From a virus: a stretch of 64,000 nt of DNA. The number at the start of each line of letters is the position of its first letter. Position 1 is the first letter of the stretch. A model generated the notes under the pieces. That model worked only from the letters and a program-made list of their open reading frames with translations, was not told the origin of the DNA and made no database searches. Location: positions 12,016-76,015 of the IMG/VR virus record IMGVR_UViG_3300027852_000038. One strand, given 5' to 3'. Position numbers and translations under genes: made by a program. Positions 4,638 through 62,564 of this stretch are shown here, one piece after another.

Positions 4638-7094
4638 TTATACCTGGACCTGCTTCCAAAAAGTAAATTTACCAGGCCCGTTTCCATCAGCCTGGATCTG
4701 GTATGTTTCTAGAACGTCGTTATCAGTCCCGACACTTACTTTATCTGTATAAGTTCGGAGCCTGGCCGAGGTCAAATTGGAGTCCCCATCATAAACAGGC
4801 TGGTCAATATAAACATTTTCTTGAGACAGCCCCAACAATCTTTGAGTTGCTAATAAAATTGCAGCGACATCCACTTGACTTGCTGGTGTGTCCGGTAAAT
4901 TGTCCGTGCGTTCTTTAATAGCCAAAGCATTTTGCCTCACCTCATGCAAAGCATAAGATTTTTCTCTTGCTTTGATTTCATGCAATTTTATTTCCCTGGT
5001 GTGAGGGTCATTGTTATAAAATTGGATCCTGATCTGTTCATAAATTTTTAATTCAGAAGACTCAACCGTGAACCAATCTTCATTTTTACCCCAAGCCCCG
5101 TTATACACTGGATGCCAAACATCCCCATAGTAAGCTTCAATATTCACCTGGTCAAAATCTTCTGGATGATCAGTAGACGCATAAAATCTAATCAATTTTG
5201 ATTCTATTTCCGGAACAGTGAAACCGGCCCAATCACTCCAATTATACGCCAATACATCAATATAACTATATGTGTCTAAACTCCCATCAATTACGTTTTC
5301 CTCATCGATCCAATTCGTAGCATTACAGCCTTCGGGAAGAGCCCAAACACCAACGGCCCTTTCCAGGTCAATCAAGGTGGAATCTTTGTCTCTTTTGTCG
5401 CTGCTCCCCATGATGTAATTATCGGGTAATTTACTCTCAACAGTATTTTTAAAAGAGGATAATAAAGCATAAACATCATCAATATTATACTCTGGAAACC
5501 CGTCTGCGTAAACATACTCACTGGTCAATCCTGTTGTTCGGACAACTAACTCAATTGGATAATTATCCGTAATAAGGCTACCTGATACGCTTACAGTATA
5601 TTTTTCATAATCTTCAGTCAAATTAAATTCAACCCAATCAGTAATCCGAACCCCCATATAAAAAGCCGCTCCCGAGCATTCCCCGGAAAACACAGCTGTC
5701 TTTTTTAAATAAATACTCAAGTCCGTATTAGCACCAGCAGCGGCGGCAATAGTCCAAATATGATATATATAATCAGTGACACTCAAAGGGCAAAATCTAA
5801 ACCCGTCGCCGTCTAAAGTCTCCGATCCCTGTATTCTTTCTACATTGCCGTATAAGGTGTTAAAAATGTACTTATCCACATCAGGAGCATTATAATGTAT
5901 TACGGTAAAACCCGGGATCATCCCTTGAATATTTAATGCACTGATATCATTACCGTTAGCTGACGTAGTGAGATGAAATACTTTGTTATCAAACCCATAG
6001 TTGGTATGTATACCGGTGCTTTCATTCTGGACAGTGGCCCGGGTAATCGTATTATTATAAGCATAGTAAAATCGTATTCCATAAGTCATATTATGATTTG
6101 TTTCGATAGTTGCGAATATATTGTTATTAGACCGGTATAACTCAACGCCATAGCTCCCGTTTTCTTCAATCAAAAGGTTCTCGAAAGTACAAGCGAACAT
6201 ATAATAACTGCGCAACCCTCTCGAATAATTCCGTCTGGCAGTATAAGCCCCTATAACAACATCTAAAGAGCTATAAATATAAGATGCGTAACCACCATTA
6301 CTACAAACAACTAAACTATCAATATTAATATTGGTGGTGTTATAGCAATAAAATCCATAGTTATAATTAGCATTACAAATTATACCCCCGAATTCACAAT
6401 TTTTGATTGTACTCACATATATTCCATATTGACAGGCCAAACATTCTAAACGGCCCGTTGATACAAAATAATCCGAATAACTTGAACTTAAACCATAGTA
6501 ATATCGTAAAAAATGAATATCAGATAATTCTATATACTTCCTATTGTATATATATAATCCATAACCATTTTTTACAGATGTATAAGGAATGACACCCTGT
6601 CTAAAATAAGTGGTCCCTGTTTTAATATCAAAGGCAGGATTCCATCCCCCGGATATTATAAGCGGTGAACCAGATGCTCCCTCATTAATGACTTGCTGGA
6701 CTTTTTCCGATGATGATGACGCATTTCCAGTATCAGTAGGAACTAATTTTACACCAGCCGCTATATCGTTTGGACCTGAATAACGTCTATCTAAACCCAA
6801 TTCTGTAGCAGTCACGGAGGTGACTGCCCAGTATCCTGAATTTCCAACACTTGTAGATTTTACAAAATCACCAGGGAATACTTCAGCGGTTAAGTCTACA
6901 CTCGTGGGAATTTTTGTATTGCCGTCTGTAAAAGTCAATATTCCTGATAGAACCACATCCGGGGGGTTCGCCTCCACCCGTATCTCATCCCCCGGAGAAG
7001 CACTAATCACTTCCGATATAGACTTCATTGGATCGGCAGGTGTTCCAGCTCCTCCGGTTGTTCCATTTAGCCAAGACACGCACCATATGGCCAT
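4638..7094 (-). CDS. Right-handed parallel beta-helix protein; putative tailspike/receptor-binding protein
   Basis: N-terminal GTPADPMKSI motif and repeated N-x-YGI/xYxxxN beta-helix rungs; located at the end of the tail block. Confidence 0.7.
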   Translation of the reverse strand: MAIWCVSWLNGTTGGAGTPADPMKSISEVISASPGDEIRVEANPPDVVLSGILTFTDGNTKIPTSVDLTAEVFPGDFVKSTSVGNSGYWAVTSVTATELGLDRRYSGPNDIAAGVKLVPTDTGNASSSSEKVQQVINEGASGSPLIISGGWNPAFDIKTGTTYFRQGVIPYTSVKNGYGLYIYNRKYIELSDIHFLRYYYGLSSSYSDYFVSTGRLECLACQYGIYVSTIKNCEFGGIICNANYNYGFYCYNTTNINIDSLVVCSNGGYASYIYSSLDVVIGAYTARRNYSRGLRSYYMFACTFENLLIEENGSYGVELYRSNNNIFATIETNHNMTYGIRFYYAYNNTITRATVQNESTGIHTNYGFDNKVFHLTTSANGNDISALNIQGMIPGFTVIHYNAPDVDKYIFNTLYGNVERIQGSETLDGDGFRFCPLSVTDYIYHIWTIAAAAGANTDLSIYLKKTAVFSGECSGAAFYMGVRITDWVEFNLTEDYEKYTVSVSGSLITDNYPIELVVRTTGLTSEYVYADGFPEYNIDDVYALLSSFKNTVESKLPDNYIMGSSDKRDKDSTLIDLERAVGVWALPEGCNATNWIDEENVIDGSLDTYSYIDVLAYNWSDWAGFTVPEIESKLIRFYASTDHPEDFDQVNIEAYYGDVWHPVYNGAWGKNEDWFTVESSELKIYEQIRIQFYNNDPHTREIKLHEIKAREKSYALHEVRQNALAIKERTDNLPDTPASQVDVAAILLATQRLLGLSQENVYIDQPVYDGDSNLTSARLRTYTDKVSVGTDNDVLETYQIQADGNGPGKFTFWKQVQV

Positions 7095-31764: not shown

Positions 31765-34700
31765 TTACATTCTCCCTTTTATTGGTTCAACAACTACCCA
31801 CCTTATTGATGCCCTATCTACATGAGTGGAAATAATCTTGTAATAATTTTTTACAGCTATTTCTTGTTCATTCTCAAAAGGAAACAAGTCAAAAGAAGTT
31901 ATCTCCTTCTTGTTGTTTACAAGTTCATTTACATCTTGAACCGGATTAATTTTCTCAAAAGCCATATTATTATCTAAATACGTTTTCGCTTCCTTTTTTG
32001 GTATCTTGATCAAGACTTGATCTGTATCTTGAAAACGATAAGATGCAGGCCCAAAAGAACTATAACCCAAATCCATCTCTTTACCTACGATCCCCGCATC
32101 AAATTCTTTATTTGTTATATTATACTTACGTAAAGCCCCGCTTCTTCTCAAAACCAAATGATCTTTTATTTCACAAACCTCTGATACTGCCTTTGGAACC
32201 CTTTTTTTGAAAGTATCCCTTATATATTTATTGTCTAACTTCTTGTGTAATTCTGCCAATCTTTTTCCCTTGTGATAAAATTTTTTCATGGCTTGTGACT
32301 CAGTGTATAAATCCACCACATGCCTCAGATCAGGTGCCCCCCTCTCCATTGTAGGCATTAAACCCTGCCGAACTAAAAAAGGCGCATCTTCCATCACCTC
32401 TTCTAAACATTTTAACTGACGGCCCGTTTTTACATTTCCAAAGTTTGAATCGCCTACCCAATTAAACACCTGTTTGACGTCCGTCCGTAATTTTTTCTTA
32501 ACTTTCATTACCAATTCTTGATTATTTGCAGCAGACATCCCACCCGCTAGATTCTCTGTCATCTTTTCCCACGCAGCTAATTTTTTAGCAACGGCCTTTT
32601 TAACTTTTATTTCATCCAACCTTTTTGCCGGTATTTCATCCATTAAAAAGAAAACCTGTCTGCTTGGTCCGGCCTTTTTATTTAATTCAATCATGCGTTT
32701 AATCAAGTCCGAAGCCTTCTTTATCTCAACAGCGGAACCCGTCTTGAGTAAATCGGCTTTTATTTTTGCCAAAACACTATCCTGAATATGGGGTTGAAAC
32801 TTTGTAAAATCCTCCACAAACTTACTTGACAAAGCTTCCATATCGCCTTTTACATCAACGTCTTTTGGTTTAATCGGTTCCATCTTACCAGGAACCTTTG
32901 ACAAGGCTGTTGGAATTGTCGTGCATCTACAGTTAGCAGTTTGATCTACTGACCCGTATGGATCATGAGGATACCGACAACCCGTGTGCGGGAACTTTTC
33001 ACCGATACGAACAGGATCAGCGGCGGCCTGTTTAACATGAGGTTCTCTAACTAAACCATCACCTGCCGAAACCCACTTATGTTCAACCACGCCCTTTGCC
33101 TGGTGTCCCATAAACCTTCCAGAATTATACGCAGTTCCAGCAATATCACGAGCCCAAGACAAGGCTTTTTCTTGCGTCAATTGAGTAACCTTAGTAAACA
33201 AGTGTTTCCGTATTTGGTCCACTGGCATACCTACGTCAACCGCTGCCTTGCCCAACTTAGATATTCGATTTAAAGTTCTTAAGGGCAGGCTTTCTGCCTT
33301 TAATGCCAATGTGCTAATAGATCCACCAACAGTCTCGATCTGTTCCGGGGTCAAATATTGAGTCAAAACAGTTGACCCCTTGTAGTCAGCAAACAAATCC
33401 TTGGCAGTGAAAGCCCCCATCTTGTCAATCTTATCTAACTCAAGGAAAGCTTTACTGATTCCAAGATTGACTGTTTCCCTTAATTTTGGCAATGCTCCAT
33501 CATTCCACACCCACATCCAAAAATCTAACTCAATGTTAAAAACACCCGTGGTTTTAAGATCACTTAAAAGTCTGTCAACAACCTGTCTACCCCAAGTCCT
33601 TAGAAACGTTCCCCACCTAATAGCCAATTTCTCAAGTATGACATTTTCATACAAAGTTGCATACTCTCTTCCAAACCTGGACTTAAAGTCTATCAATGAA
33701 CCATTCTGAAACTTAGAAACGCAACCTTCTGAATTATTAACATCCTCTGAATTATTAACATCCTCTGGAGGATCTTCTGGAGGATCTTCTGGTGGATCCT
33801 CTTGTGGTTTTTCGTCTCCGTCCCCCGCTAAAGCAGGATTGCCCAGAATAACGGCGATTTCTGATTTTTTATACCCGGCCGATTGATAATTTTTAACAGC
33901 CGTTGACTCATTAACTGTATCAACGTATCGTCCTCTTACCTCTGAAATATTATAATCAATGGTATAGCCAGGAAAAAAAGTTTCAACAAGCCTTGTCTGG
34001 AACAGATCAGAAATATTAGTTAACTTTGGGGTCATTGTGGATTCCCAAAAAATTTTCATCTGGGCATTCGTGTTGGCATAGTTTGCATAACGGAAGATGC
34101 CAACCATGGCCGGGGGAACCCCATAAGTGGCACAGATCTCTTCCCTTGTGTTCTGCTTACCTGTTGCAAAGTCGGCATCTTTAGCAGATGTATGATGTAT
34201 TTCTGCATCTACATCTTTACCGCCCACAATAAGCAAATTGTCATTATTTCCCCACCCACCGAAACCAGAAATAAGCCTTTTCTTAAATTCCCTCATTTGA
34301 GCAGCGTCAAGTTGCGTTGGTAATTTGACAACGACTGTCGGCCTGACGCCCTGCTTAAAAAAGTTTATATTCCATTTAGAAATATAAAAATCTTCTTCTA
34401 TTGAAAAAGCCGCCCGGGTATATGGAGCTTCCCCGGTGAATGCGTTAAGGGAAAACCCGGTCCTTATGAATATAAACTGCTCCAACGGATATTTCTTTGA
34501 CCCGGCCGCCCAATATTTTAAATTCCCCTTGCTGTCTAATACAGGAGTGAGGGAATAACCATCAATCAGATGCAGTTCTGTAGGCACCCCTTCCTTGAAC
34601 TTGTCCAGGCCTAAACCACAACCCCCAAAGTAAGACAAGTTTAAGAGAATAAAATGTGTTAAATCTGACAGTGTCCTTTTATTCTTTAAACCTCCCCGCA

Positions 34701-34896
34701 ACAACTCTAGTAATGGATCGCCAGCACTCACCTCTGTATCATTCTTTGTTATGATAAGAGGCACCCCCGCCCCTGCTTCCGATATCCTGGTTGAACAAAT
34801 ATAAATCCAACAAACCTTGCGCCACGCTTCCGCAAGAACAAAGGATTTATTTGAATTTGAACCACCACCACCAAAAATATTGCTAAAAATACTCAT
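31765..34896 (-). CDS. Portal protein fused to MuF (gp7-like) domain and C-terminal putative ADP-ribosyltransferase
   Basis: Portal: FFKQGVRP, EEICATYGVPPAMVG. MuF: KWVSAGDGLVREPH...NCRC. C-terminus: LVLRRSG / GYSSF / ENEQEIAV (R-S-ExE). Confidence 0.85.
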   Translation of the reverse strand: MSIFSNIFGGGGSNSNKSFVLAEAWRKVCWIYICSTRISEAGAGVPLIITKNDTEVSAGDPLLELLRGGLKNKRTLSDLTHFILLNLSYFGGCGLGLDKFKEGVPTELHLIDGYSLTPVLDSKGNLKYWAAGSKKYPLEQFIFIRTGFSLNAFTGEAPYTRAAFSIEEDFYISKWNINFFKQGVRPTVVVKLPTQLDAAQMREFKKRLISGFGGWGNNDNLLIVGGKDVDAEIHHTSAKDADFATGKQNTREEICATYGVPPAMVGIFRYANYANTNAQMKIFWESTMTPKLTNISDLFQTRLVETFFPGYTIDYNISEVRGRYVDTVNESTAVKNYQSAGYKKSEIAVILGNPALAGDGDEKPQEDPPEDPPEDPPEDVNNSEDVNNSEGCVSKFQNGSLIDFKSRFGREYATLYENVILEKLAIRWGTFLRTWGRQVVDRLLSDLKTTGVFNIELDFWMWVWNDGALPKLRETVNLGISKAFLELDKIDKMGAFTAKDLFADYKGSTVLTQYLTPEQIETVGGSISTLALKAESLPLRTLNRISKLGKAAVDVGMPVDQIRKHLFTKVTQLTQEKALSWARDIAGTAYNSGRFMGHQAKGVVEHKWVSAGDGLVREPHVKQAAADPVRIGEKFPHTGCRYPHDPYGSVDQTANCRCTTIPTALSKVPGKMEPIKPKDVDVKGDMEALSSKFVEDFTKFQPHIQDSVLAKIKADLLKTGSAVEIKKASDLIKRMIELNKKAGPSRQVFFLMDEIPAKRLDEIKVKKAVAKKLAAWEKMTENLAGGMSAANNQELVMKVKKKLRTDVKQVFNWVGDSNFGNVKTGRQLKCLEEVMEDAPFLVRQGLMPTMERGAPDLRHVVDLYTESQAMKKFYHKGKRLAELHKKLDNKYIRDTFKKRVPKAVSEVCEIKDHLVLRRSGALRKYNITNKEFDAGIVGKEMDLGYSSFGPASYRFQDTDQVLIKIPKKEAKTYLDNNMAFEKINPVQDVNELVNNKKEITSFDLFPFENEQEIAVKNYYKIISTHVDRASIRWVVVEPIKGRM

Positions 34897-37512
34897 CTAT
34901 TCCACCTCATCCCATAAACTTTCATTTAAGACTTGATCTGCAATAGTTTCATCCTCTCCACCAGTTGAGCCTATGAACATCGTGGGTAAATAATTTTGTC
35001 CATAATTGAAGACATTGATCACAGAACCAACTACCGCATCACTTAAATCTTTAGACTGTCCAGGCCTGTGGTCAATCTTCCTTTTCCGCTTGTCCCAAAC
35101 TAAATTTAAAAGCTCTCTCTTAAATATAGAGTTAGCCGGACAAATATATTTATCTGCTATAATCAGTCCTTTTAAAAATAAATATTCTTCGTCGGTCCTG
35201 TCAACAGAAACCAAACCACAGTTAATGCCCTCACTTTCTAGATATTGTAAGCTGCTTCTACTTTGAAAACTGTCTAAACTCACAAAGGCTATGTTATAAC
35301 CTAAATCTCGCAAGTGAACAATAAACTCAGCCACCCTTAAAATGGGAATTTCACCCACCGAAGGGGGAGAAAGAGACAGCATCCATTCTGTTGCCACATG
35401 AGGGTCTAAACCTCCCCGCATAGAGCAACCAATGTGAACAGAACAAGCTAAACCGGTTCGATCTGTTGTTATTGACTGATCTATATGAATACATCTGGGA
35501 ACTTCCCTGTCATAATTCGGCGTATCAATAAAAAAATCCTCAATTCTATCACTTCTTTTGGTGGATATTGAAATGATATCCTTGACAAACATTCTTTTCA
35601 ACATACTGGTGGTTGCTTTGTTTAAGGATCTCTCTGTTACAAACCCCACAGAACCCCTTAAACTTTTCCCAAGTATATCCTGAATACTGGCAACTATATC
35701 ATCTAGAAAATCATCAAGAAAATCAACCGGGACCGCCTCCAATTCAAGCCTATCAGCAAACTGATCAAACAATTCAATTGACCCGGCCTTTTTATCATAT
35801 TCAATTGACAGACCCTCCAACAACTCCACTAAGTCGTCCCGATTCTGAATAACTTTGGGGTCAAACATCTCTGAGCCCAAATACACATGAAATTTGTCAT
35901 CTGCTGAAAACTTAGCTGCGTTCACTTTCAGACCTTCAACAATGGTGACAAATCCCTTTCCACTACTATTCAATTTTTGAATTCGCTCTTCAACAAAAGG
36001 GGACTGATAGGAGGGGGAGGATATTAAAAGAGAAAGTCCGTTATCTTCTCCCTTAATATTAAAACGGGTTTTTCTCCTCCGCAGGGTAGCTTCATAAAGA
36101 ATTTTTGATTTACTTAAAACCTCAACATCTTTAGGACTGACCACACTTTTATAGAAATCCCCTTCATCAAGGAAAGTTCCAAATAAATCCATACCAATTT
36201 GATGGCCTACATCAGAACCATAGGTGACAGTCATTGAAGGATAAACCAGGCTTGAAATTACATTTTTATCACGAATAAAATACTTATTGAAATATGGTAT
36301 TGTGTCAGCAATTGCCATTATCCTACCATACCCCGTCCTTTTCGCTTGGGTCAAAGAAACTGAAAAATATACAAACCAAAGTATAGTTGATCGCATAAGA
36401 TTATAAATACCAGGAATAGGACTGAAACAAGACAGTTCATAAATTTTCCGGAACAGTGCAAACGCCGCCGCCGTTGTATTATGATTAATGACTCCCCCGG
36501 CATAAAATTGGTGTGTAACAGGAACAGACAAATCATAAACATTTACAGATTTCTTGATGATCTCAACCTTACATTCAGTGAAAACAAACCTTGTTTTGGG
36601 AGCCTGAGTTGGATTTGTGAGCCGGTTAAATTCAACCTCTGTAAACTCAAGACCAAAATAATTTATATAACCCTTCATTGATTTAACTTTAAACCGGGGG
36701 TAAATAGACAAAATATTTGACAACTCCTGAATAGATTTAATCAATCCTTTTGATTGGGAAGCAATCTCATAATGACGCTGACCCGGTCTAAGAAGCCCAA
36801 GTAAAAATCCTCTAATAAAATCTTTATTGCTTTTAAAAAACCACTCAGATAGTTTTTCCATCTCCAGACTTTCACCAAGTGACAAAGTCCCTGTGGCATG
36901 ACCAAACTCTCCCTCTGTTAAATCTTTAAACTCCTCTGGCCGAGTGGTCCTGTTGTTAAATAAAACAGGAACCTGCGTATCCAGGGCCACTCTTACACCG
37001 TTTTTTAGTTCTCCTAGTTTCTTAAGCTGAACCCCGTCAGGAGTAAGGACTTTAATTGGATGATCTTTTGTTCCCGATAAATCTATCCTATCACTGTAAA
37101 CCCTTACAACTTCCTGTTGGGTAGAATCTTTATAAAAGTAATCTGAACTGTGTGTGTCATCAACTTTGACCTCTAATGGAGTAAACCCATCAACTTCAGA
37201 AGGGGCAAGATCTTCTATTTTGATATACCCCTCCGAGGTCATAACACGGTTATTTCCAGTAATACACTTGCCAGAACCCAGACTTCCAAACAATACCCAC
37301 TCTGGTTGACCTGAATGTATAAATTCGGTTATTTCTTGCTTCCAAAAATCATAAAGCAACAAGCCATCAGGTCCACAATAAAAGCCGTTTTCCAGCCACT
37401 TTTCTATCGGGACAATCTCTCTTATTTGTTCAGTTTTAGTAGTGGCATGTATATCTGCAATACTCTGAAATATTTCAATTAATTTTGGTTGCATTTCCTG
37501 CCTTCTTTTCAA
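34897..37512 (-). CDS. terL: Terminase large subunit, intein-containing
   Basis: Walker A GSLGSGK|T split by an intein; Walker B FLDEGD; nuclease HIDQS, SLDSFQS, KDLSDA; upstream of portal. Confidence 0.93.
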   Translation of the reverse strand: MKRRQEMQPKLIEIFQSIADIHATTKTEQIREIVPIEKWLENGFYCGPDGLLLYDFWKQEITEFIHSGQPEWVLFGSLGSGKCITGNNRVMTSEGYIKIEDLAPSEVDGFTPLEVKVDDTHSSDYFYKDSTQQEVVRVYSDRIDLSGTKDHPIKVLTPDGVQLKKLGELKNGVRVALDTQVPVLFNNRTTRPEEFKDLTEGEFGHATGTLSLGESLEMEKLSEWFFKSNKDFIRGFLLGLLRPGQRHYEIASQSKGLIKSIQELSNILSIYPRFKVKSMKGYINYFGLEFTEVEFNRLTNPTQAPKTRFVFTECKVEIIKKSVNVYDLSVPVTHQFYAGGVINHNTTAAAFALFRKIYELSCFSPIPGIYNLMRSTILWFVYFSVSLTQAKRTGYGRIMAIADTIPYFNKYFIRDKNVISSLVYPSMTVTYGSDVGHQIGMDLFGTFLDEGDFYKSVVSPKDVEVLSKSKILYEATLRRRKTRFNIKGEDNGLSLLISSPSYQSPFVEERIQKLNSSGKGFVTIVEGLKVNAAKFSADDKFHVYLGSEMFDPKVIQNRDDLVELLEGLSIEYDKKAGSIELFDQFADRLELEAVPVDFLDDFLDDIVASIQDILGKSLRGSVGFVTERSLNKATTSMLKRMFVKDIISISTKRSDRIEDFFIDTPNYDREVPRCIHIDQSITTDRTGLACSVHIGCSMRGGLDPHVATEWMLSLSPPSVGEIPILRVAEFIVHLRDLGYNIAFVSLDSFQSRSSLQYLESEGINCGLVSVDRTDEEYLFLKGLIIADKYICPANSIFKRELLNLVWDKRKRKIDHRPGQSKDLSDAVVGSVINVFNYGQNYLPTMFIGSTGGEDETIADQVLNESLWDEVE
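36478..37266 (-). mobile_element. Intein in TerL P-loop (263 aa), degenerate LAGLIDADG remnant
   Basis: CITGNNRVMTSEG ... GTKDHPI ... VYDLSV ... INHN|T. Confidence 0.95.
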
Positions 37513-37867
37513 CTTTAGAAATCTCTTTAGAGAGTAGAGTGAAATCTTCCGGGGACATATTTGTCATTTTATAAACCATGGCATCGATTTCTTCTGAACC
37601 CTCTAAACCCGAAGGCTCCATTTGAATGGCCACCTTACGGACAAACTCAATCAAGTTGACCACTGCCTTGGATATAACTTGAACATCTTCTCTCAACTCA
37701 TTCAACTGTATATCTGAAAATTGAACACCCGAGCTAAAATCCCATTGACCTAAAATAGTAGCTTCAGCATCCTCTAAAAATTTTAAATGGCACTCAATCC
37801 TTGCCTTACTCTTCTCAACAATGTTAAAAAGAAATTCTTCTACAGTCCGTCTATTTAATTTTGCCAT
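37475..37867 (-). CDS. putative terminase small subunit
   Basis: Positional inference: helical 130-aa ORF overlapping the TerL start; no diagnostic motif. Confidence 0.4.
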   Translation of the reverse strand: MAKLNRRTVEEFLFNIVEKSKARIECHLKFLEDAEATILGQWDFSSGVQFSDIQLNELREDVQVISKAVVNLIEFVRKVAIQMEPSGLEGSEEIDAMVYKMTNMSPEDFTLLSKEISKVEKKAGNATKIN

Positions 37868-37893
37868 TTCTTTACTCCCCTTAACAAATCATA
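37822..37893. repeat. 72-bp exact direct repeat, copy 1
   Basis: Identical to 38526-38597; contains the RBS and first codons MAKLNRRTVEEFLFN. Confidence 0.95.
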
Positions 37894-37932
37894 CACCCAC
37901 CCTACTTATTATGCCATCATGGGTAAATAATT

Positions 37933-38571
37933 TTATCCATAATTGAAAACACCTATAACCGAACCAACAACAGCATCGGTTAGATCTTTAGACTGTCCAG
38001 GTCTGTGGTCAATTTTCTTTTTTTGCTTGTCCCAAACTAAATTTAACAGCTCTCTCTTAAATATAGAGTTAGCCGGACAAATATATTTACCTGCAAGAAC
38101 CAATCCCTTTAAAAATAAGTATTCTTCATCAGTTCTATCGACAGAAACCAAACCACAGTTAATGCCCTCGCTTTCTAAATATTGTAAGCTTGCCCTCGAC
38201 TGATATGAATCTAGACTAACAAAGGCTATATTATACCCTAAATCTCGCAAGTGAACAATAAACTCAGCCACCCTTAAAATAGGAATTTCCCCCACCGAAG
38301 GAGGAGCGAGAGACAACATCCATTCAGTTGCCACATATGAGTTTGATCCTCCCATCAATGAACAAGCTAATCCAGTTCGGCTGATATGAATACACCTGGG
38401 AGCTTTCCTGTCATAATTCGGAGCATCAATGAAAAAATCCTCAATTCCATCATTTCTTTTGGTAGAAATTGAAATGATATCCCCGACAAACATTCTTTTC
38501 AACATACTGGTTGGCGGTTTAGCCTTGTTAAAAAGAAATTCTTCTACAGTCCGTCTATTTAATTTTGCCAT
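37933..38571 (-). CDS. Paralog of TerL nuclease domain lacking first catalytic Asp, fused to 15 N-terminal residues of putative TerS
   Basis: By-hand alignment to the TerL C-terminus: 10 substitutions in the last 133 aa and two in-frame deletions, including DQSITT. Confidence 0.9.
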   Translation of the reverse strand: MAKLNRRTVEEFLFNKAKPPTSMLKRMFVGDIISISTKRNDGIEDFFIDAPNYDRKAPRCIHISRTGLACSLMGGSNSYVATEWMLSLAPPSVGEIPILRVAEFIVHLRDLGYNIAFVSLDSYQSRASLQYLESEGINCGLVSVDRTDEEYLFLKGLVLAGKYICPANSIFKRELLNLVWDKQKKKIDHRPGQSKDLTDAVVGSVIGVFNYG

Positions 38572-38597
38572 TTCTTTACTCCCCTTAACAAATCATA
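38526..38597. repeat. 72-bp exact direct repeat, copy 2
   Basis: Identical to 37822-37893; overlaps the 3' end of the sigma-like gene. Confidence 0.95.
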
Positions 38598-39296
38598 TGT
38601 TTGCTGTTGACTTTTTGTCTTTAACTCGACTTCCTCCCCCTCTAACTTCTTTCTTATATCACTAATAGACTCCATTACATTAGCCAAGGTTATATCCTTC
38701 ACAAACCGTATGTTCTTCCCGCTGAATAAATAAAACACATAAACTAGATCAGCTCCCAAGCGATCAAAAAGAAGCAACAAAGTGAAATAATCTAGCTTAT
38801 AGACCCGGCTTAAATAAGCCGCTAGAATTTCAAAGTCTAAACTGTCTCCCTTACTATGGGAATTTTTCTCTTCAAAATCATACTTCTTGGCCCTTTGCAC
38901 GGCCTCTCCTGAAGGTGGGTCAATGACATCACTTGCTTTTACCAAGGAATCGACAGAATTGACTGTATTATTAATCAAATCAGCCTTTAGAACCTCCCCT
39001 TCAGGAGTAGACAATAATGCAGCATCAAGGTGATAAGAGTCATCAAGTTTCCTGCCTGCTCTATAAATATCGGTTGATATAGAATTTCTAACAACAGTGA
39101 AAATGAAAGTCAAAAAATTTTGAGATTCATCATAATAATCAAGAGCTTCATACACCCGGACAACCGCCCTGCTTCTTACGTCGTCATCGTGGCGAAAAAG
39201 ATACCGAACAACCAGATAATCCACAAATTTCAACAACTCGGTTCCAAACTCTTCTGTTTCAGACCCGCCATTAAAATACAATTCGTTTAATTTCAT
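38559..39296 (-). CDS. Sigma-70 region 2-like phage transcription factor
   Basis: DDVRSRAVVRVYEALDYYDESQNFLTFIFTVVRNSI resembles sigma region 2; sits at the head of the packaging operon. Confidence 0.55.
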   Translation of the reverse strand: MKLNELYFNGGSETEEFGTELLKFVDYLVVRYLFRHDDDVRSRAVVRVYEALDYYDESQNFLTFIFTVVRNSISTDIYRAGRKLDDSYHLDAALLSTPEGEVLKADLINNTVNSVDSLVKASDVIDPPSGEAVQRAKKYDFEEKNSHSKGDSLDFEILAAYLSRVYKLDYFTLLLLFDRLGADLVYVFYLFSGKNIRFVKDITLANVMESISDIRKKLEGEEVELKTKSQQQTYDLLRGVKKWQN

Positions 39297-41524
39297 TTAG
39301 TAAACCTTGATTTGCTTGAACTCACTTGTCCAATCATTAAAGATTTAATGGAATATAAAAACAAACTCCAATCGGTAGTGTTCTTTAAATACCCACTCAT
39401 TTTTAAATAATACTTAATCAAGTCAAATCTGAAACTATTAGAAACATCACCCGTGAACTCTTGTTCGGCCAAGTCCCGGATAAACTTGTCAAAGTCTTGC
39501 CGGATAATGTGAACCGGTTCTGAAAGTATCCGATCTATAACCAGTTTGGGAGATTTACCAGCCTTTAACAATTGAATAATGGCCCTTATGTCATTATCTA
39601 AAACACCCACGCACTTTGTAAATTCATCACCCATTAATACGAATAATTCTAACCCTTGAAGAGAATCTCTAAAATGACCCCCGGCCCTTCTCACTATAAT
39701 ATCCAAAGCCTCTTTTGGTAAATCAATACCCTCTCTTTCAGAAACAGCTTTTACAAGGGAACAAACCTCTTCATTGGTGCCAAACGGATATCTAAGAACT
39801 AAGGATCTTGAAACTATTGTATCAATCAGTCCCCCGATATCTGTTGTTGAAAATATATAAAAAATCTTTGCAGTTGAATCTTCCAAGATCTTAAGCAGTG
39901 CTGACTGTGCCTGATTACTCACTAAATGGCTTTCATCAAGGACCGCCACCCGCCAGCCTGCCAAAGACGAATGAGCTAAAATATCCCTCATTTGCCTGAT
40001 TGTATTTACATTCCCCACAACAGCAGAATCAAATTCATGATACTGAGCCCCGCCTTCCAAAGAAGCCTTACACCCGGCACACTCATTGCAGCAATCACCA
40101 TTTCTTTTTTCACAGTTGACAGCCCGGGCAAATATCCTCGCAGCAGTTGTGTTATGCACCAAAATAGAATTAGCCACAAACATATGCGATTTACTGTTAG
40201 TTAAATCGTAAACTTCACCCCTTCCCTTTTCTATTCCTTTAACTTTAGCAAAAAATAGAGAATTTGGCAAGTCCGGGAACCTACCCCTCAATTCAGGAAT
40301 CAAATTCTCCAGTTTTATTTTGACCTCTTTAAAAGATCCATAGCTTATTTCTGGTTTTTCAAGGAAATAACGATTAATTTCTATAAGTGCCTTCCGCATC
40401 CGTCTGGTTAACTTTACCCCGGCCAATAATTTTTTAATGAACAAGACACCCCCGGGAATTACATTATCATACCTTATACCACCAACAGTCAAAATATATC
40501 GTTTACTTTGGGTGTTACCTTCTCGCATTTTACATACAATCCCTTGACTGTTGTGCATGTGAAAGACAAACAAAGCAAGATCTTCAAAATTAGTTCCATA
40601 TTCCATACGTCCTAAAGGGCTGTTTTGAGTCATCTTAAGCAGGCCCCTGATAAAAGCGCACTGATTAGACCAAGTTGTATTCCAAATAATATCAGGAACC
40701 TTCTTGCCCTCCACCCGTCTATTAAAAACTCCTAAGTATTTCAACCAGCTGTTAAAAGCTACATCATTCGGAACAATGTCAATATTATAAAAGCCCTCAT
40801 GGTTGCTGTCTGCTGATCTTTTCGAGGATACCTTTAATTCCATGTCAAGGTAATCTTGTATCCAATCCAAAAGGTCCAGGTCTGAAGAATGAAACGGAGA
40901 TAGTCCATATTGCAATCCGTCCCCTATCAACAGACCAAGGAAAAAGGCCTGGGAATTATCCAAAGCTTGTCGAGCCTTGGCTTCTAAACACTTCTTTTTA
41001 GTCTCAATTGGATCCTTTGACGGGACCCACACCGTGCTCCCCAATAGATTCCATGGAACTGGCGAAATGTCCTGTATTACAGTGTCCCCTCTCTTTAGAA
41101 GGCTTAACTCTTTGAATGTCAGGTCGAATTTGTCTTTATCCCAACTAAGAACAGGATGCTCCAAGGTTCCCCCTAACTTGTTCCCTTCTTCAGTCTCAAA
41201 AAAGATTAAATCCCGCTCTCCACCATAGAAAAAAGCGGACACCTCTTCAAGTTTTCCGTGAACCAATACTTTTTCCTTGGCCTTATAAAAAGCTTGTTCA
41301 ATTAACGGTCCCCCGGGTGATAGATCCTCAATCCTTCTAAGACCTTTTTCACTCTTAATCAGTGAACCTTTAACCACACACTTTCCTTGACCATGAGGAC
41401 CACACAATATAATTGATCGTGGTGCCCGTTCTGGGTTCTTAGCTATCCGATTTAAAACAGAAACAGCGGGAATATTACCCGCCATTTCTGAAAAAGTTTG
41501 GGGCCTGTAATCTCTTGTTAACAT
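39293..41524 (-). CDS. dnaX: DNA polymerase III gamma/tau-like clamp loader, intein-containing
   Basis: YRPQTFSEMAGN, GPHGQGK|TTAARIFARAVNC, CCNECAGC Zn motif, LDESH, ALLKILE, SRS. Confidence 0.93.
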   Translation of the reverse strand: MLTRDYRPQTFSEMAGNIPAVSVLNRIAKNPERAPRSIILCGPHGQGKCVVKGSLIKSEKGLRRIEDLSPGGPLIEQAFYKAKEKVLVHGKLEEVSAFFYGGERDLIFFETEEGNKLGGTLEHPVLSWDKDKFDLTFKELSLLKRGDTVIQDISPVPWNLLGSTVWVPSKDPIETKKKCLEAKARQALDNSQAFFLGLLIGDGLQYGLSPFHSSDLDLLDWIQDYLDMELKVSSKRSADSNHEGFYNIDIVPNDVAFNSWLKYLGVFNRRVEGKKVPDIIWNTTWSNQCAFIRGLLKMTQNSPLGRMEYGTNFEDLALFVFHMHNSQGIVCKMREGNTQSKRYILTVGGIRYDNVIPGGVLFIKKLLAGVKLTRRMRKALIEINRYFLEKPEISYGSFKEVKIKLENLIPELRGRFPDLPNSLFFAKVKGIEKGRGEVYDLTNSKSHMFVANSILVHNTTAARIFARAVNCEKRNGDCCNECAGCKASLEGGAQYHEFDSAVVGNVNTIRQMRDILAHSSLAGWRVAVLDESHLVSNQAQSALLKILEDSTAKIFYIFSTTDIGGLIDTIVSRSLVLRYPFGTNEEVCSLVKAVSEREGIDLPKEALDIIVRRAGGHFRDSLQGLELFVLMGDEFTKCVGVLDNDIRAIIQLLKAGKSPKLVIDRILSEPVHIIRQDFDKFIRDLAEQEFTGDVSNSFRFDLIKYYLKMSGYLKNTTDWSLFLYSIKSLMIGQVSSSKSRFTK
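40151..41380 (-). mobile_element. Intein in DnaX P-loop (410 aa) with LAGLIDADG domain
   Basis: CVVKGSLIKSEKG ... GTLEHPV ... FLGLLIGDG ... VYDLT ... LVHN|T. Confidence 0.95.
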
Positions 41525-59190: not shown

Positions 59191-59409
59191 TTAATTCCCC
59201 TTTTTATTTTTTGCTTCATTTTTGACAATCTGCTCAAAAGAAAGAGCGGAGGAGCTTGTCTTTAAAGATGGTGAAACTCCCTTTGTAGTGACCATCCTTT
59301 TTTCACAGCCAACAATAACCAATATACGGTTGTCCGGGTGTTTTCTCCCTCCGATACCAAAACCGGTTTCTCCCCCCTGATTTTTTCCAACCATAGAGTC
59401 AAAAATCAT
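59191..59409 (-). CDS. small hypothetical protein
   Basis: ATG overlaps the TGA of the Zn-finger ORF (ATGA coupling). Confidence 0.45.
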   Translation of the reverse strand: MIFDSMVGKNQGGETGFGIGGRKHPDNRILVIVGCEKRMVTTKGVSPSLKTSSSALSFEQIVKNEAKNKKGN

Positions 59410-59540
59410 TCTAGGATTTCTTCTTGACAATTTTCGCAGTAAGGAACATATTTTTTTGCTGTGAAATCATAAACTTCGATTTTAGCTACGGTTTTGCACC
59501 ATTCGCACTTACATTCGTGTGTGATTTTTCTTGTTTTCAT
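59406..59540 (-). CDS. 44-aa zinc-finger microprotein, not in ORF track
   Basis: MKTRKITHECKCEWCK...PYCENCQEEILE*; AAGGGG RBS inside repeat cassette D. Confidence 0.75.
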   Translation of the reverse strand: MKTRKITHECKCEWCKTVAKIEVYDFTAKKYVPYCENCQEEILE

Positions 59541-59618
59541 TTTTTATTCCCCTTAAGTTTGTTGTTGTTGTTTGCTCTTATTTAGCTTATCGGCATCCTG
59601 CAAAATAACTTTAACTTT
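59525..59618. repeat. Regulatory cassette copy D (nearly identical to 62336-62428)
   Basis: Core 59587-59618 plus a leader, RBS and MKTRK codons shared with copy A. Confidence 0.9.
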
Positions 59619-59733
59619 TTTATTCGCAAGGTGAATTAAAAGTTTTTGATTTGCTCTTTCCACTTCAAAAACAAGTCCAATATCCTCTTTGGTTGATTCT
59701 CCGATTGTGGAGCGTCTCACATTTTCTGTCATT

Positions 59734-60027
59734 TTAATTCTGGGGCACGTAAATATTAATAGTCCCAGTAATCCTATGAACCTTGACCATTGTTCCATCG
59801 CTCCCTTTCATTCCACAAACCTTCAGACCGCTGGAATAAATTTTTCTTACTAATTGATACGGTTCAGTATCACAATTATCTATCCAAAAATTAGAAATTT
59901 TTATATTTTGAATATACCCAATGGCTCTCTGAATAGCATAATCCTCAAAATCATTCGTAAAATATTCCATCATTTCATTTAAATCATTCATTTTTTCTTC
60001 CCTGATCTCTTTTGCTCTTGGTATCAT
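59734..60027 (-). CDS. hypothetical protein
   Basis: Downstream of cassette C with AAAGGGGAA RBS. Confidence 0.6.
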   Translation of the reverse strand: MIPRAKEIREEKMNDLNEMMEYFTNDFEDYAIQRAIGYIQNIKISNFWIDNCDTEPYQLVRKIYSSGLKVCGMKGSDGTMVKVHRITGTINIYVPQN

Positions 60028-60035
60028 TTTGGTTC

Positions 60036-60151
60036 CCCTTTGTGGATTGGGTCCAGGATTGTTCCTGTTCCCTTTATAACTCTTATCGGCATCCTATGAA
60101 ATAACTTTAGCCTTATTCTATAAACCTACCATACATTCAATATTTTGTCAA
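60036..60151. repeat. Regulatory cassette copy C
   Basis: Core 60083-60114; upstream TTGACA segment shared with copy A, hairpin/RBS segment shared with copy B. Confidence 0.88.
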
Positions 60152-60280
60152 GGTTTATCCAAATTCCAGGCGTCTGGACATCCACAATTTTCACAGAACG
60201 GAAATTCGCAACAGCCACAAATCAAGCATACCTGTTGCCCACATACATGGCAGCAAACACCCAATATAATTATCCATCAT
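60148..60280 (-). pseudogene. Cys-rich microprotein interrupted by a one-base frame offset
   Basis: RBS plus ATG at 60280 is in one frame; the +1 frame 60264-60148 reads LGVCCHVCGQQVCLICGCCEFPFCENCGCPDAWNLDKP*. Confidence 0.5.
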
Positions 60281-60295
60281 TATTTCCCCTCAAAA

Positions 60296-61567
60296 TTATA
60301 AGACCAATTTCTTCAATACATCTTCAGACAAAACACAATCAAGATAAGTCTTGTCAGTCCTAAACCCACGGATCCAATCAGCTTCAGCATGCATAATCCT
60401 TTTAGACTTTCCAGAAATATCCTGACCGTTAACAATTAAAACCCGGTTATAATATTCTTCTTTCAAGCATGGGTTACCATTATCATCAAGCATTGACATT
60501 TCCTTTCTTAGATCTAACGGCACGGAAGAAATAGAGCATATATGATGCTCTTTATTTTTTGACCCCTTAATCAACACGGACATTTTAAGAGAACCAATCA
60601 ACCCTAAGTCTGACCACTCTTTTCCTTCTGTTGCCGGAACAAACCCGGAAATAAAAGCGTCAAGGTCTGATCCTAACGATTCATTCATTGATCGCTTCAG
60701 TTTAACCTGGGTATCACGTCTTCTGGAATCAGTTCTAACGTATGGTTTATAAAGATTCTTTAAAACAATCCCTTCACACCCTCCAGCCACCAATTGATCA
60801 AAATATTTCTTCTTGCCTGTTGTAATGACCTCCGATTGACTAAACGGAAGTTGTTTTTCCAGGCCTCCTCTAACCACCTTATTTAGAACTTTTTTTCTGA
60901 AGTGGAGGTCATTACGCCAAACCGGAGTTTCCCCTACTTCCAATATGTCCCATTCCTTGAAAAATAACTGACATTGTGTTTTCTGAATTTCATGGGAATC
61001 TTTAGCATTAATACTGAGAATCGCCGTCACCGCATCTAAAGCAGTCTCACAGACCGTTCCATATTTACGAAAAACAGTTGTGTCAATAGAGGATTTCTTA
61101 ACAAAACACTCCCCATCCAAAATGAAAGATTTCTTAAACACCCCCTTCCATTGTCCCGGGGTAGTTATCACGCCATCTTTAATCAACAGTATCTTATCAG
61201 TGTATTCGATTGGTTGGAAATCGACCACTGAAATATTCCTACTGAAAAATGTAAAGCCCTCATCCGGATGATAAAAGGGTAACATCCGGACCCCGTCTTC
61301 TTTCTTCTCAGCAATATAATCGGGGGAGTTCAACAATGCATGCTTTTCTTTTTCCTTTAAATGTTTAAAGGAGAAGCAAAGCATGGGGGATTCAAGCTCG
61401 TTCCGTTTAATTCGACCCCATGAAGGGGAATCAATTTTCTTAAAATGATAATCCATTAAAAGCTTGATCATCGCTTTTCTGGTGATTTTGTCAGGGATTA
61501 TAATTCCCCTGATTCTACACTCTTTTTTTAATTGTGCTGACGTTCTTTGCACGGCTCCTCCTATCAA
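60296..61567 (-). CDS. ATP-dependent DNA ligase
   Basis: Motif I EKKEDG, ILDGE, WDIL, EGIVLK, C-terminal OB domain. Confidence 0.9.
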   Translation of the reverse strand: MIGGAVQRTSAQLKKECRIRGIIIPDKITRKAMIKLLMDYHFKKIDSPSWGRIKRNELESPMLCFSFKHLKEKEKHALLNSPDYIAEKKEDGVRMLPFYHPDEGFTFFSRNISVVDFQPIEYTDKILLIKDGVITTPGQWKGVFKKSFILDGECFVKKSSIDTTVFRKYGTVCETALDAVTAILSINAKDSHEIQKTQCQLFFKEWDILEVGETPVWRNDLHFRKKVLNKVVRGGLEKQLPFSQSEVITTGKKKYFDQLVAGGCEGIVLKNLYKPYVRTDSRRRDTQVKLKRSMNESLGSDLDAFISGFVPATEGKEWSDLGLIGSLKMSVLIKGSKNKEHHICSISSVPLDLRKEMSMLDDNGNPCLKEEYYNRVLIVNGQDISGKSKRIMHAEADWIRGFRTDKTYLDCVLSEDVLKKLVL

Positions 61568-61865
61568 TTTTTACATGGATCAAAATATCTTTTTGATCCA
61601 CAGAAACCTCTTTCTTAATTGTCAGAGGTTTCATATTCTTACAAAACTCTTCTCCATAATAAACGCACCCAGGAACAACAAAACTACCTGCATACAATGA
61701 AATACTCTCAACTTTAATTGTATGAGACTCATTACTCACAAAATCACCGACCCTGACAGGATTGTTTTCTTGCGCAAACCGTAACCCCCAGTTTACTATC
61801 TCCCTTTTTTGCCTTTCTACAATTTCATTAAACCATTTTATTTCTCTCTCTTCTCTGGTATCCAT
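61515..61865 (-). CDS. hypothetical protein, paralog of 63682-63978
   Basis: Shared VxxGDxV...IxV...PxCxYxG pattern. Confidence 0.6.
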   Translation of the reverse strand: MDTREEREIKWFNEIVERQKREIVNWGLRFAQENNPVRVGDFVSNESHTIKVESISLYAGSFVVPGCVYYGEEFCKNMKPLTIKKEVSVDQKDILIHVKIDRRSRAKNVSTIKKRV

Positions 61866-61881
61866 TTCAATTCCCTTTTTA

Positions 61882-62019
61882 TTATCTGATTTGCTCTATT
61901 TGATCCAATCTCTTGGAACTCAAATCTTTAACATCATTTACCATGTCCATTGCAGAAAATGCAAACCAAGCATAAACGGTTCCAATAATTGCTACTGTGA
62001 TTATTATTTTTTTCAGCAT
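61882..62019 (-). CDS. 45-aa membrane microprotein, not in ORF track
   Basis: MLKKIIITVAIIGTVYAWFAFSA...; AAAGGGGAA RBS in cassette B. Confidence 0.7.
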   Translation of the reverse strand: MLKKIIITVAIIGTVYAWFAFSAMDMVNDVKDLSSKRLDQIEQIR

Positions 62020-62025
62020 GGCATT

Positions 62026-62106
62026 TCCCCTTTTTTGGTTGGGTTCAGGATTGTTCCTGAACCCTTTATATAATTTATCGGCATCTTGTGAAATAACTTT
62101 AGCTTT
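62026..62106. repeat. Regulatory cassette copy B with perfect 10-bp hairpin
   Basis: Core 62075-62106; hairpin GGGTTCAGGA-ttgt-TCCTGAACCC at 62041-62064. Confidence 0.9.
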
Positions 62107-62351
62107 TATTTACGAATGAGAAAGTTAGGATATTTTTCTAAATTATTGCCTGGATAATACGGCCAGGCAATAAACTCACCAAGAGTGTTATCGTGGTGGG
62201 ACGTGCAAACATAACCCCTTGCCTCAAATTCCTCCTGGTAGGATTCCACCAGGCCGGAGGACATTCTGGACTTTTTATAATACCGATTCAGGTAGTCTTC
62301 GACCGAATCAGCCTCAACCACTCTTGTCATTGCTCTTTTTCTTGTTTTCAT
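62106..62351 (-). CDS. hypothetical protein (81 aa)
   Basis: Downstream of cassette A; starts MKTRK like the Zn-finger ORF. Confidence 0.65.
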   Translation of the reverse strand: MKTRKRAMTRVVEADSVEDYLNRYYKKSRMSSGLVESYQEEFEARGYVCTSHHDNTLGEFIAWPYYPGNNLEKYPNFLIRK

Positions 62352-62462
62352 TTTTTATTCCCCTTAAGTTTGTTGTTGTTATTGCTCTTATTTAGTTTAT
62401 CAGCATCCTGCAAAATAACTTTAGCTTTATTATACAAACCTACCATACAATATTTTGTCAAG
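62336..62462. promoter_or_regulatory. Regulatory cassette copy A with TTGACA and TATAAT hexamers (21-bp spacing)
   Basis: Minus strand TTGACA-aaatattgtatggtaggtttg-TATAAT, then core 62397-62428 and RBS. Confidence 0.65.
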
Positions 62463-62564
62463 TTATTTCTTGAATCTCTAACTTAAGTTAAACTGAAAAC
62501 AACATGTCAAAGGTTATGAACCAAATTAATAATTCAAATTAAGGGTAATTACACGCACAAAAAT

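Follow-up and report, generated by a model that had tools for sequence, protein, structure and literature searches.

A chimeric open reading frame carrying a putatively disabled terminase nuclease domain in a marine phage genome, a candidate product of recent recombination

In the terminases of lambda and T3/T7, the C-terminal tail is the usual portal/prohead-binding part of the protein. The nuclease domains of large terminases (TerL), including those of G20c (5M1K), D6E (5OE9), SPP1 G2P (2WC9), HK97 (6Z6D), and T4 gp17 (3CPE), have an RNase H-like fold. The same fold was predicted for the product of a 212-aa open reading frame (ORF) in the genome of a marine phage, assembled from a metagenome, and the downstream acidic and His residues that are invariant in the terminase family were kept in this ORF. 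Unlike the large terminases, the ORF stands alone, without an ATPase domain, the beta1 Asp, the DQSxTTD loop, or the C-terminal tail, and it has a shortened beta2-beta3 hairpin and 15 N-terminal residues that come from another gene.

Phage mosaicism is attributed to illegitimate and homeologous recombination (PMC2327257 and PMC3945230). The locus presented here resembles such mosaicism in that a diverged homologous segment with microhomology joints and a target duplication was found in one lineage only. It differs in that a piece of an essential packaging gene is placed just upstream of its own gene and in that the fragment stays an intact, probably translated frame with a clean active-site deletion.

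Terminases are also ligands of the STAND defense proteins Avs1-3. Avs sensors envelop the core of their target and are activated by binding (PMC13581612), and KpAvs2 engages the ATPase domain of the terminase, both as shown and as predicted for its interface (PMC11564622). The ORF product is similar to an Avs1-3 ligand in having the fold of part of a terminase (chain E of the Avs3-terminase complex 8dgc was found at rank 24 in a Foldseek search), but unlike such a ligand it does not include the ATPase domain, the predicted binding site of KpAvs2.

Gene order and assembly support

The window, meaning the whole stretch of 64,000 nt that was analyzed, comprises bases 12016-76015 of a single contig of 77,775 bp with 39% G+C. 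The contig ends share an exact 126-nt overlap (genome 7-132 and 77650-77775; self-BLAST), which suggests a circularly closed metagenomic phage assembly. The contig record is classed as linear, with an estimated completeness of 57%, despite this overlap. A family of 70- to 216-nt repeats with 83 to 94% identity was scattered near the contig ends (self-BLAST), at ~59405-62480 in the window and at genome positions 6286-6800 and 76235-76335 outside it.

All genes around the chimeric ORF are on the minus strand. In the order of transcription, they are a clamp-loader gene (39293-41524) with an intein right after the P-loop lysine, a sigma-70 region-2-like gene of 245 aa (38559-39296), the chimeric ORF of 212 aa (37933-38571), a small gene of 130 aa (37475-37867), the resident TerL gene of 871 aa (34897-37512) with an intein after the Walker A lysine, and a portal-MuF fusion gene of 1043 aa (31765-34896) with portal and MuF-like head-morphogenesis domains. 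TerL was assigned to the 871-aa gene from weak PHROG matches, synteny, homologs, and fold. An overlap between the stop codon of the sigma-like gene and the start codon of the chimeric ORF suggests that the two are translationally coupled, as the 130-aa gene would have been in the ancestral arrangement.

The insert is flanked by a perfect 72-nt direct repeat (38526-38597 and 37822-37893, 100% identical), which contains the last codons of the sigma-like gene, a ribosome-binding site, and the first 15 codons of the small gene. The first copy supplies the 3' end of the sigma-like gene together with the ribosome-binding site and the 15 codons used by the chimeric ORF; in the second copy, the ribosome-binding site and 15 codons belong to the 130-aa gene and the sigma-derived part is noncoding. 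A preliminary description of the locus, made from the sequence, had proposed that the ORF borrows the ribosome-binding site and 15 codons of a putative small terminase gene. The repeat confirms the borrowing, whereas the small terminase label is positional only: the small gene lies directly upstream of TerL and overlaps it, but it had no match in Pfam or PHROGs and no usable Atlas match, and no Terminase_2 domain was detected in the genome.

Three assemblies of the region (a JGI assembly, an ENA k141 assembly, and the window's own record) were 100% identical over 16 to 20 kb and probably derive from one sample. Among public runs, the region was present in one DNA run and in no RNA run. Strain composition was assessed from the k=31 Logan contigs (unitigs) of one run, in which the 72-nt repeat formed a separate unitig with a depth of 68, about twice that of the flanks (31 to 34), and insert-specific unitigs had depths of 27 to 40x compared to 31 to 34x for the flanks, which fits one copy per genome. 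No diverged contigs (85 to 95% alike, at a likeness threshold of 85%) were found in that run over the rest of TerL or the small gene.

These data bear on whether the ORF is an assembly chimera, in which the assembler would have linked reads from two strains present together, either via the 72-nt repeat or via TerL words common to both, an outcome that the preliminary description had named as one that would overturn its reading. The genome is metagenome-derived, and a single sample and run seem to be the origin of all records, so such an artifact is conceivable in principle, but it is very unlikely here: the assemblies agree, the junctions are unique and are represented by unitigs, the repeat has double depth and the insert the depth of its flanks, no second strain is visible in the run, and mixing of strains would not fuse the fragment to codon 15 of another gene. 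Nearly all genomes of the one population sampled appear to carry the insert, which, given the easy precise excision expected from perfect 72-nt repeats, would be at least not costly.

Sequence and predicted fold of the chimeric ORF

Codons 1 to 15 of the chimeric ORF are the start of the small gene, and codons 16 to 212 derive from the TerL nuclease domain, with the frame ending in TAA. Residues 16 to 212 aligned to TerL residues 631 to 838 (871-aa numbering), and the whole TerL-derived fragment (~615 nt; 37915-38529), which is internal to the TerL gene and cut off at both ends, corresponds to TerL residues 631 to 845. Compared to the matching region of the resident gene (34978-35622), the fragment had 85.7% DNA identity (595 aligned nt, 85 differences); it contains 6 extra nt near its 5' junction and lacks 18 nt at each of two sites. 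The 212-aa protein was 84% identical to the C-terminal domain of the resident TerL, and in its last 133 aa only 10 positions differed, with 35 codons changed synonymously only, including all of those for V-D-R-T-D.

Both deletions were in frame. The first removes DQSITT, and the Asp that follows is changed to Ser, so that both Asp residues of the HIDQSITTD loop are lost; the second removes SVHIGC. The alignment at the first deletion is ambiguous, and it may have arisen by one 18-nt loss between AGATC repeats with several substitutions or by losses of 4 and 14 nt with one substitution. The duplication of the nuclease domain, the 10 differences among many synonymous changes, and the two 6-aa deletions, one of which takes the first catalytic Asp, had all been reported in the preliminary description and were reproduced.

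The segment IHIDQSxTTDRTG was invariant or nearly so in 12 to 15 homologs, and D53 and D59, which were invariant in 15 homologs, are missing from the ORF. The remaining acidic and His residues (in DSYQS, KIDH, and SKD..DA) were all kept, in columns that are invariant across the family including the copy, as was every family-invariant residue outside the deleted loop. The copy also keeps the ancestral DSYQSRA where the resident TerL has changed. These comparisons support a reading of the ORF as a second, putatively catalytically disabled copy of the TerL nuclease domain. Identity as an intact TerL was ruled out, as the ATPase domain and the beta1 Asp and DQSxTTD loop are missing; in place of the N-terminal ATPase domain (Walker A/B), there are 15 codons of the neighboring gene, after which the sequence continues from TerL residue 631.

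No decay of the reading frame was found, with 212 of the 212 codons open and a single stop 18 nt before the end of the similarity. That stop results from a CAA-to-TAA change, beyond which similarity to TerL runs just 18 nt further, to L-P-T-M of TerL; had the CAA codon been kept, the frame would have run on for just 8 codons. The preliminary description had noted the change and the similarity past the stop correctly and had ascribed the loss of the acidic tail to it; the tail is missing because the copied fragment ends before the TerL tail, not because of the nonsense change.

Since the ORF inherits a ribosome-binding site, a start codon, and an overlap with the upstream stop, the intact 212-aa frame is probably translated. 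A scan for promoters around the insert gave 9 promoter-like sites compared to 6.6 expected, which is no excess over background, and scans for terminators and RNA folding around the insert gave nothing above background (fold z = -0.03).

Neither Pfam nor PHROGs recognized the 212-aa ORF, and a PDB sequence search with the TerL C-terminal domain returned chance matches only. An RNase H-like terminase nuclease fold was instead predicted from structure. The AF2 model of the 212-aa protein had a pLDDT of 85 and a pTM of 0.84, and its top 23 Foldseek matches in the PDB were all large-terminase nucleases (E values from 1e-5 to 1e-3; probability, 1.00), the best being G20c (5m1k), D6E, SPP1, HK97, and T4. 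When the C-terminal domain of the resident TerL was modeled with AlphaFold, strand beta1 ended at the first Asp (D53), and the remainder of the invariant segment, with D59, formed the beta1-beta2 loop. The second deletion would shorten the beta2-beta3 hairpin, the loop of which was modeled with low confidence. Both deletions trim a loop or a hairpin tip in these models and spare the core strands, and the ORF ends after the last core helix. The predicted product is a compact nuclease core without the beta1 catalytic loop, the beta2-beta3 hairpin tip, and the C-terminal tail.

Age and origin of the insertion

The chimeric ORF is best explained, with moderate confidence, as a young, probably translated, nuclease-dead by-product of recombination without a dedicated function. 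We infer that the small gene ahead of TerL received, after its 15th codon, a TerL piece of ~615 nt containing the nuclease domain alone, with two junctions at microhomologies, as in template switching or illegitimate recombination, and with duplication of 72 nt of the target. The chimeric ORF would thereby have taken over the ribosome-binding site, the start codon, and the overlap with the stop of the upstream gene. The source would have been a diverged TerL allele other than the present resident, either from a related phage or an old allele before its replacement, and most of the 14% divergence, which is strongly synonymous, would have arisen while both sequences belonged to working terminases.

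Features expected of a fragment placed by recombination were found: truncation at both ends, AACA and ATGA microhomologies, and perfect flanking 72-nt repeats. The 5' junction lies in ...TTTAACA / AACAAGGC..., which is common to the small gene and TerL and contains the AACA microhomology. Between the clear TerL similarity and the second repeat copy there is a 21-nt filler (37894-37914). This filler aligns weakly to TerL (~14/27 matches) and may represent a decayed stretch of that gene, interrupted by a 7-nt gap; its final ATGA recurs at the start of the repeat. The identity of the repeats extends exactly to both microhomology junctions.

The repeats also date the insertion relative to the divergence of the copies. 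Roughly half of each repeat copy has no coding role of its own, yet there were 0 differences; at the divergence rate of the TerL copies, the probability of 72 of 72 identical positions was ~1.5e-5, and the 95% upper bound on repeat divergence was 4%. As the repeats are perfect and un-eroded, the TerL copies, now 14% apart, had begun to diverge long before the insertion took place and the ORF arose.

The ratio of nonsynonymous to synonymous changes (dN/dS) between the ORF and TerL was 0.12 to 0.13 (NG86 and YN00; NG86 ratio, 0.13, with dN of 0.076 and dS of 0.60) and was 0.09 in the last 133 codons. The preliminary description had proposed dN/dS as a check on its claim; the ratio was indeed low, yet the recent date of the insertion confounds its interpretation. 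It is low most likely because the divergence built up between functional TerL alleles before capture and was inherited with the allele of a relative. Because the insertion is young compared to the divergence of the copies, pairwise dN/dS is uninformative on selection acting on the fragment. A relative-rate test was restricted to amino acid changes, as the outgroups were ~50% identical and synonymous changes cannot be polarized; it assigned 10 derived changes to the copy and 5 to TerL (P = 0.30), and 4 to each in the last 133 aa. The copy looks like a snapshot of a working TerL with a few lesions. The locus illustrates a more general caution: when a fragment was captured from another lineage, selection on it cannot be read from a low dN/dS relative to its resident homolog.

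Searches for relatives covered both proteins and viral contigs. A word-indexed search of 5.8 billion proteins returned only the ORF itself and a truncated terminase, with no ortholog, and an exhaustive search of 1.84 billion representatives returned terminases and terminase fragments and no ORF ortholog. The stand-alone relatives that the preliminary description had suggested looking for were not evident among 1947 matches; the short matches of the exhaustive search resembled terminase calls that were cut short or given a wrong start, and in many of them the D-x-S-x3-D loop is retained. The nearest TerL proteins were 51 to 52% identical, and none was above 53% among the 5.8 and 1.84 billion proteins. 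A scan of viral contigs with the TerL C-terminal domain for close relatives or a donor allele found nothing, and no donor allele was found in the two protein searches, which counts against the recombination by-product.

Five distantly related loci (L003 to L007) each had exactly one match to the ORF, inside TerL, and so a single nuclease domain. The order in L007 was clamp loader, sigma-like gene, small gene, TerL, and portal-MuF, with no insert, and L004 had the same order, also with no insert, but with a 217-aa gene in the sigma position that is not recognizably related; identity to TerL in these relatives was 41 to 52%. L003, L005, and L006 share just the TerL-portal part of the locus. The site is empty in distant relatives, and the insert appears to be derived and lineage specific. 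Lineage specificity does not show that the insert is useless. The preliminary description had called the copy conserved, a view that does not agree with the un-eroded repeats, the lack of orthologs, and the absence of the copy from these five syntenic relatives.

An older origin within the genome was also considered, in which the small gene and TerL were duplicated in tandem, an internal deletion followed, and the copies diverged in place while conversion homogenized the repeats. The copies are 2937 nt apart in register, and a tandem duplication with one deletion gives exactly such a layout. Within the 14%-diverged copies, there were two perfectly identical runs of 42 to 44 nt (~35144-35185/38081-38122 and ~35338-35381/38275-38318; positions approximate, read off the alignment), which exceeded the lengths obtained by codon shuffling (P ~0.005 for the second run). 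These runs may be gene-conversion patches between the copies, and frequent conversion could also keep the 72-nt repeats identical and mask an older origin, a point that weighs against a young by-product. Conversion should, however, homogenize a 600-nt homology more readily than a 72-nt island bounded by unrelated sequence; neither repeat edge was eroded, the identity of the repeats is improbable without conversion at the rate given above, and there was no trace of a second copy in relatives. Old duplication with conversion was considered improbable and was rated below capture of a diverged allele. One of the identical runs encodes KYICPANSIFKREL, a segment that is variable within the family.

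Under capture of a diverged allele, the locus would be a clean, well-dated example of the birth of a chimeric reading frame in a phage, with a two-junction microhomology insertion and an untouched 72-nt target duplication.

Possible roles of the product and features of neighboring genes

The preliminary description had taken retention of the frame through a fusion and two deletions to suggest selection for an inactive protein. The retention stands, but two function-free explanations and luck may also cover it. A free, unregulated nuclease domain expressed from a strong ribosome-binding site would probably be harmful, and loss of the loop would be expected as inactivation was favored. Translation to 66 nt before the small gene would avoid polarity on the small gene and TerL, which would favor in-frame inactivation over a stop or frameshift. 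By luck, the frame would stay open in roughly 1 in 9 to 1 in 27 cases (frames alone), and a scan that picks intact ORFs enriches for such lucky frames.

The same retention of the frame through the fusion and both deletions is a point against the recombination by-product, as are deletions that trim a loop and a hairpin tip, keep the core, and leave an ORF ending after the last helix, which is tidier than a random scar, and the near-full frequency of the insert in spite of repeats that should permit easy precise excision. These observations are instead those expected if the ORF encodes a maintained, working protein, namely, a nuclease-dead terminase core made from expression signals of the small-terminase type, with a confidently predicted terminase nuclease fold, a strong inherited ribosome-binding site, and coupling to the upstream gene. 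Possible routes include action in trans on packaging (where, for example, it might bind DNA ends or TerL and restrain cleavage), action on a host terminase sensor as a decoy, and action against co-infecting relatives. A working protein is nonetheless unlikely, though it merits consideration: it was conserved neither in the protein searches nor in the five related loci, the insertion is young relative to the divergence, so that nothing can be drawn from dN/dS, the other catalytic residues have stayed unchanged, in keeping with recent inactivation, and the ATPase domain and the conserved Trp-acidic C-terminal tail are missing. A dominant-negative effect on packaging is conceivable despite the missing Trp-acidic tail. 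We give a rather small chance to the narrower proposal that a newly made, nuclease-dead, stand-alone core is kept for acting in trans, where it might temper or time TerL cutting, sabotage packaging in a co-infecting relative, or weaken a host defense that senses terminase. If the protein is used, it would be a first example of an inactive terminase nuclease that stands alone and acts on packaging or on immunity that senses terminase, and the birth of such a gene would be directly observable.

The decoy of Avs sensors that the preliminary description had put forward gained no positive evidence and has at most a very slim chance of being correct. The product shares a fold with part of an Avs ligand, but Avs proteins are normally activated by binding, and a mimic would more likely trigger them than titrate them; the ORF is also without the ATPase domain, the active-site loop, and the tail. 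In the literature found on terminase recognition by Avs, it is the ATPase domain or the whole fold that is recognized, and no terminase decoy was reported. The finding is no evidence for a new anti-defense principle. A young recombination by-product remains the preferred account of the ORF.

The small gene preceding TerL was in the same position in L004, L005, and L007 and was poorly conserved. The small proteins of L005 (262-621) and L007 (9685-10035) share an acidic motif, (D/E)EMYHKL(K/R)(S/T)LD, near the C terminus, and the 130-aa protein of the window has a looser version of it, EEIDAMVYKMTNM; none of these three proteins matched a known small-terminase family. The portal-MuF protein (31765-34896) contains a PEDP/DVNNSE repeat linker and a long C-terminal extension, and portal-MuF fusions were present in all five relatives as well. 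Inteins were found in three essential-type genes, those for TerL, the clamp loader, and an upstream radical-SAM enzyme (L001 1282-5295), and the TerL and clamp-loader inteins both sit directly after the P-loop lysine. Among the relatives, intein-free versions were found in L004 and L003, and inteins were found in the TerL of L005 and the radical-SAM enzyme of L007.
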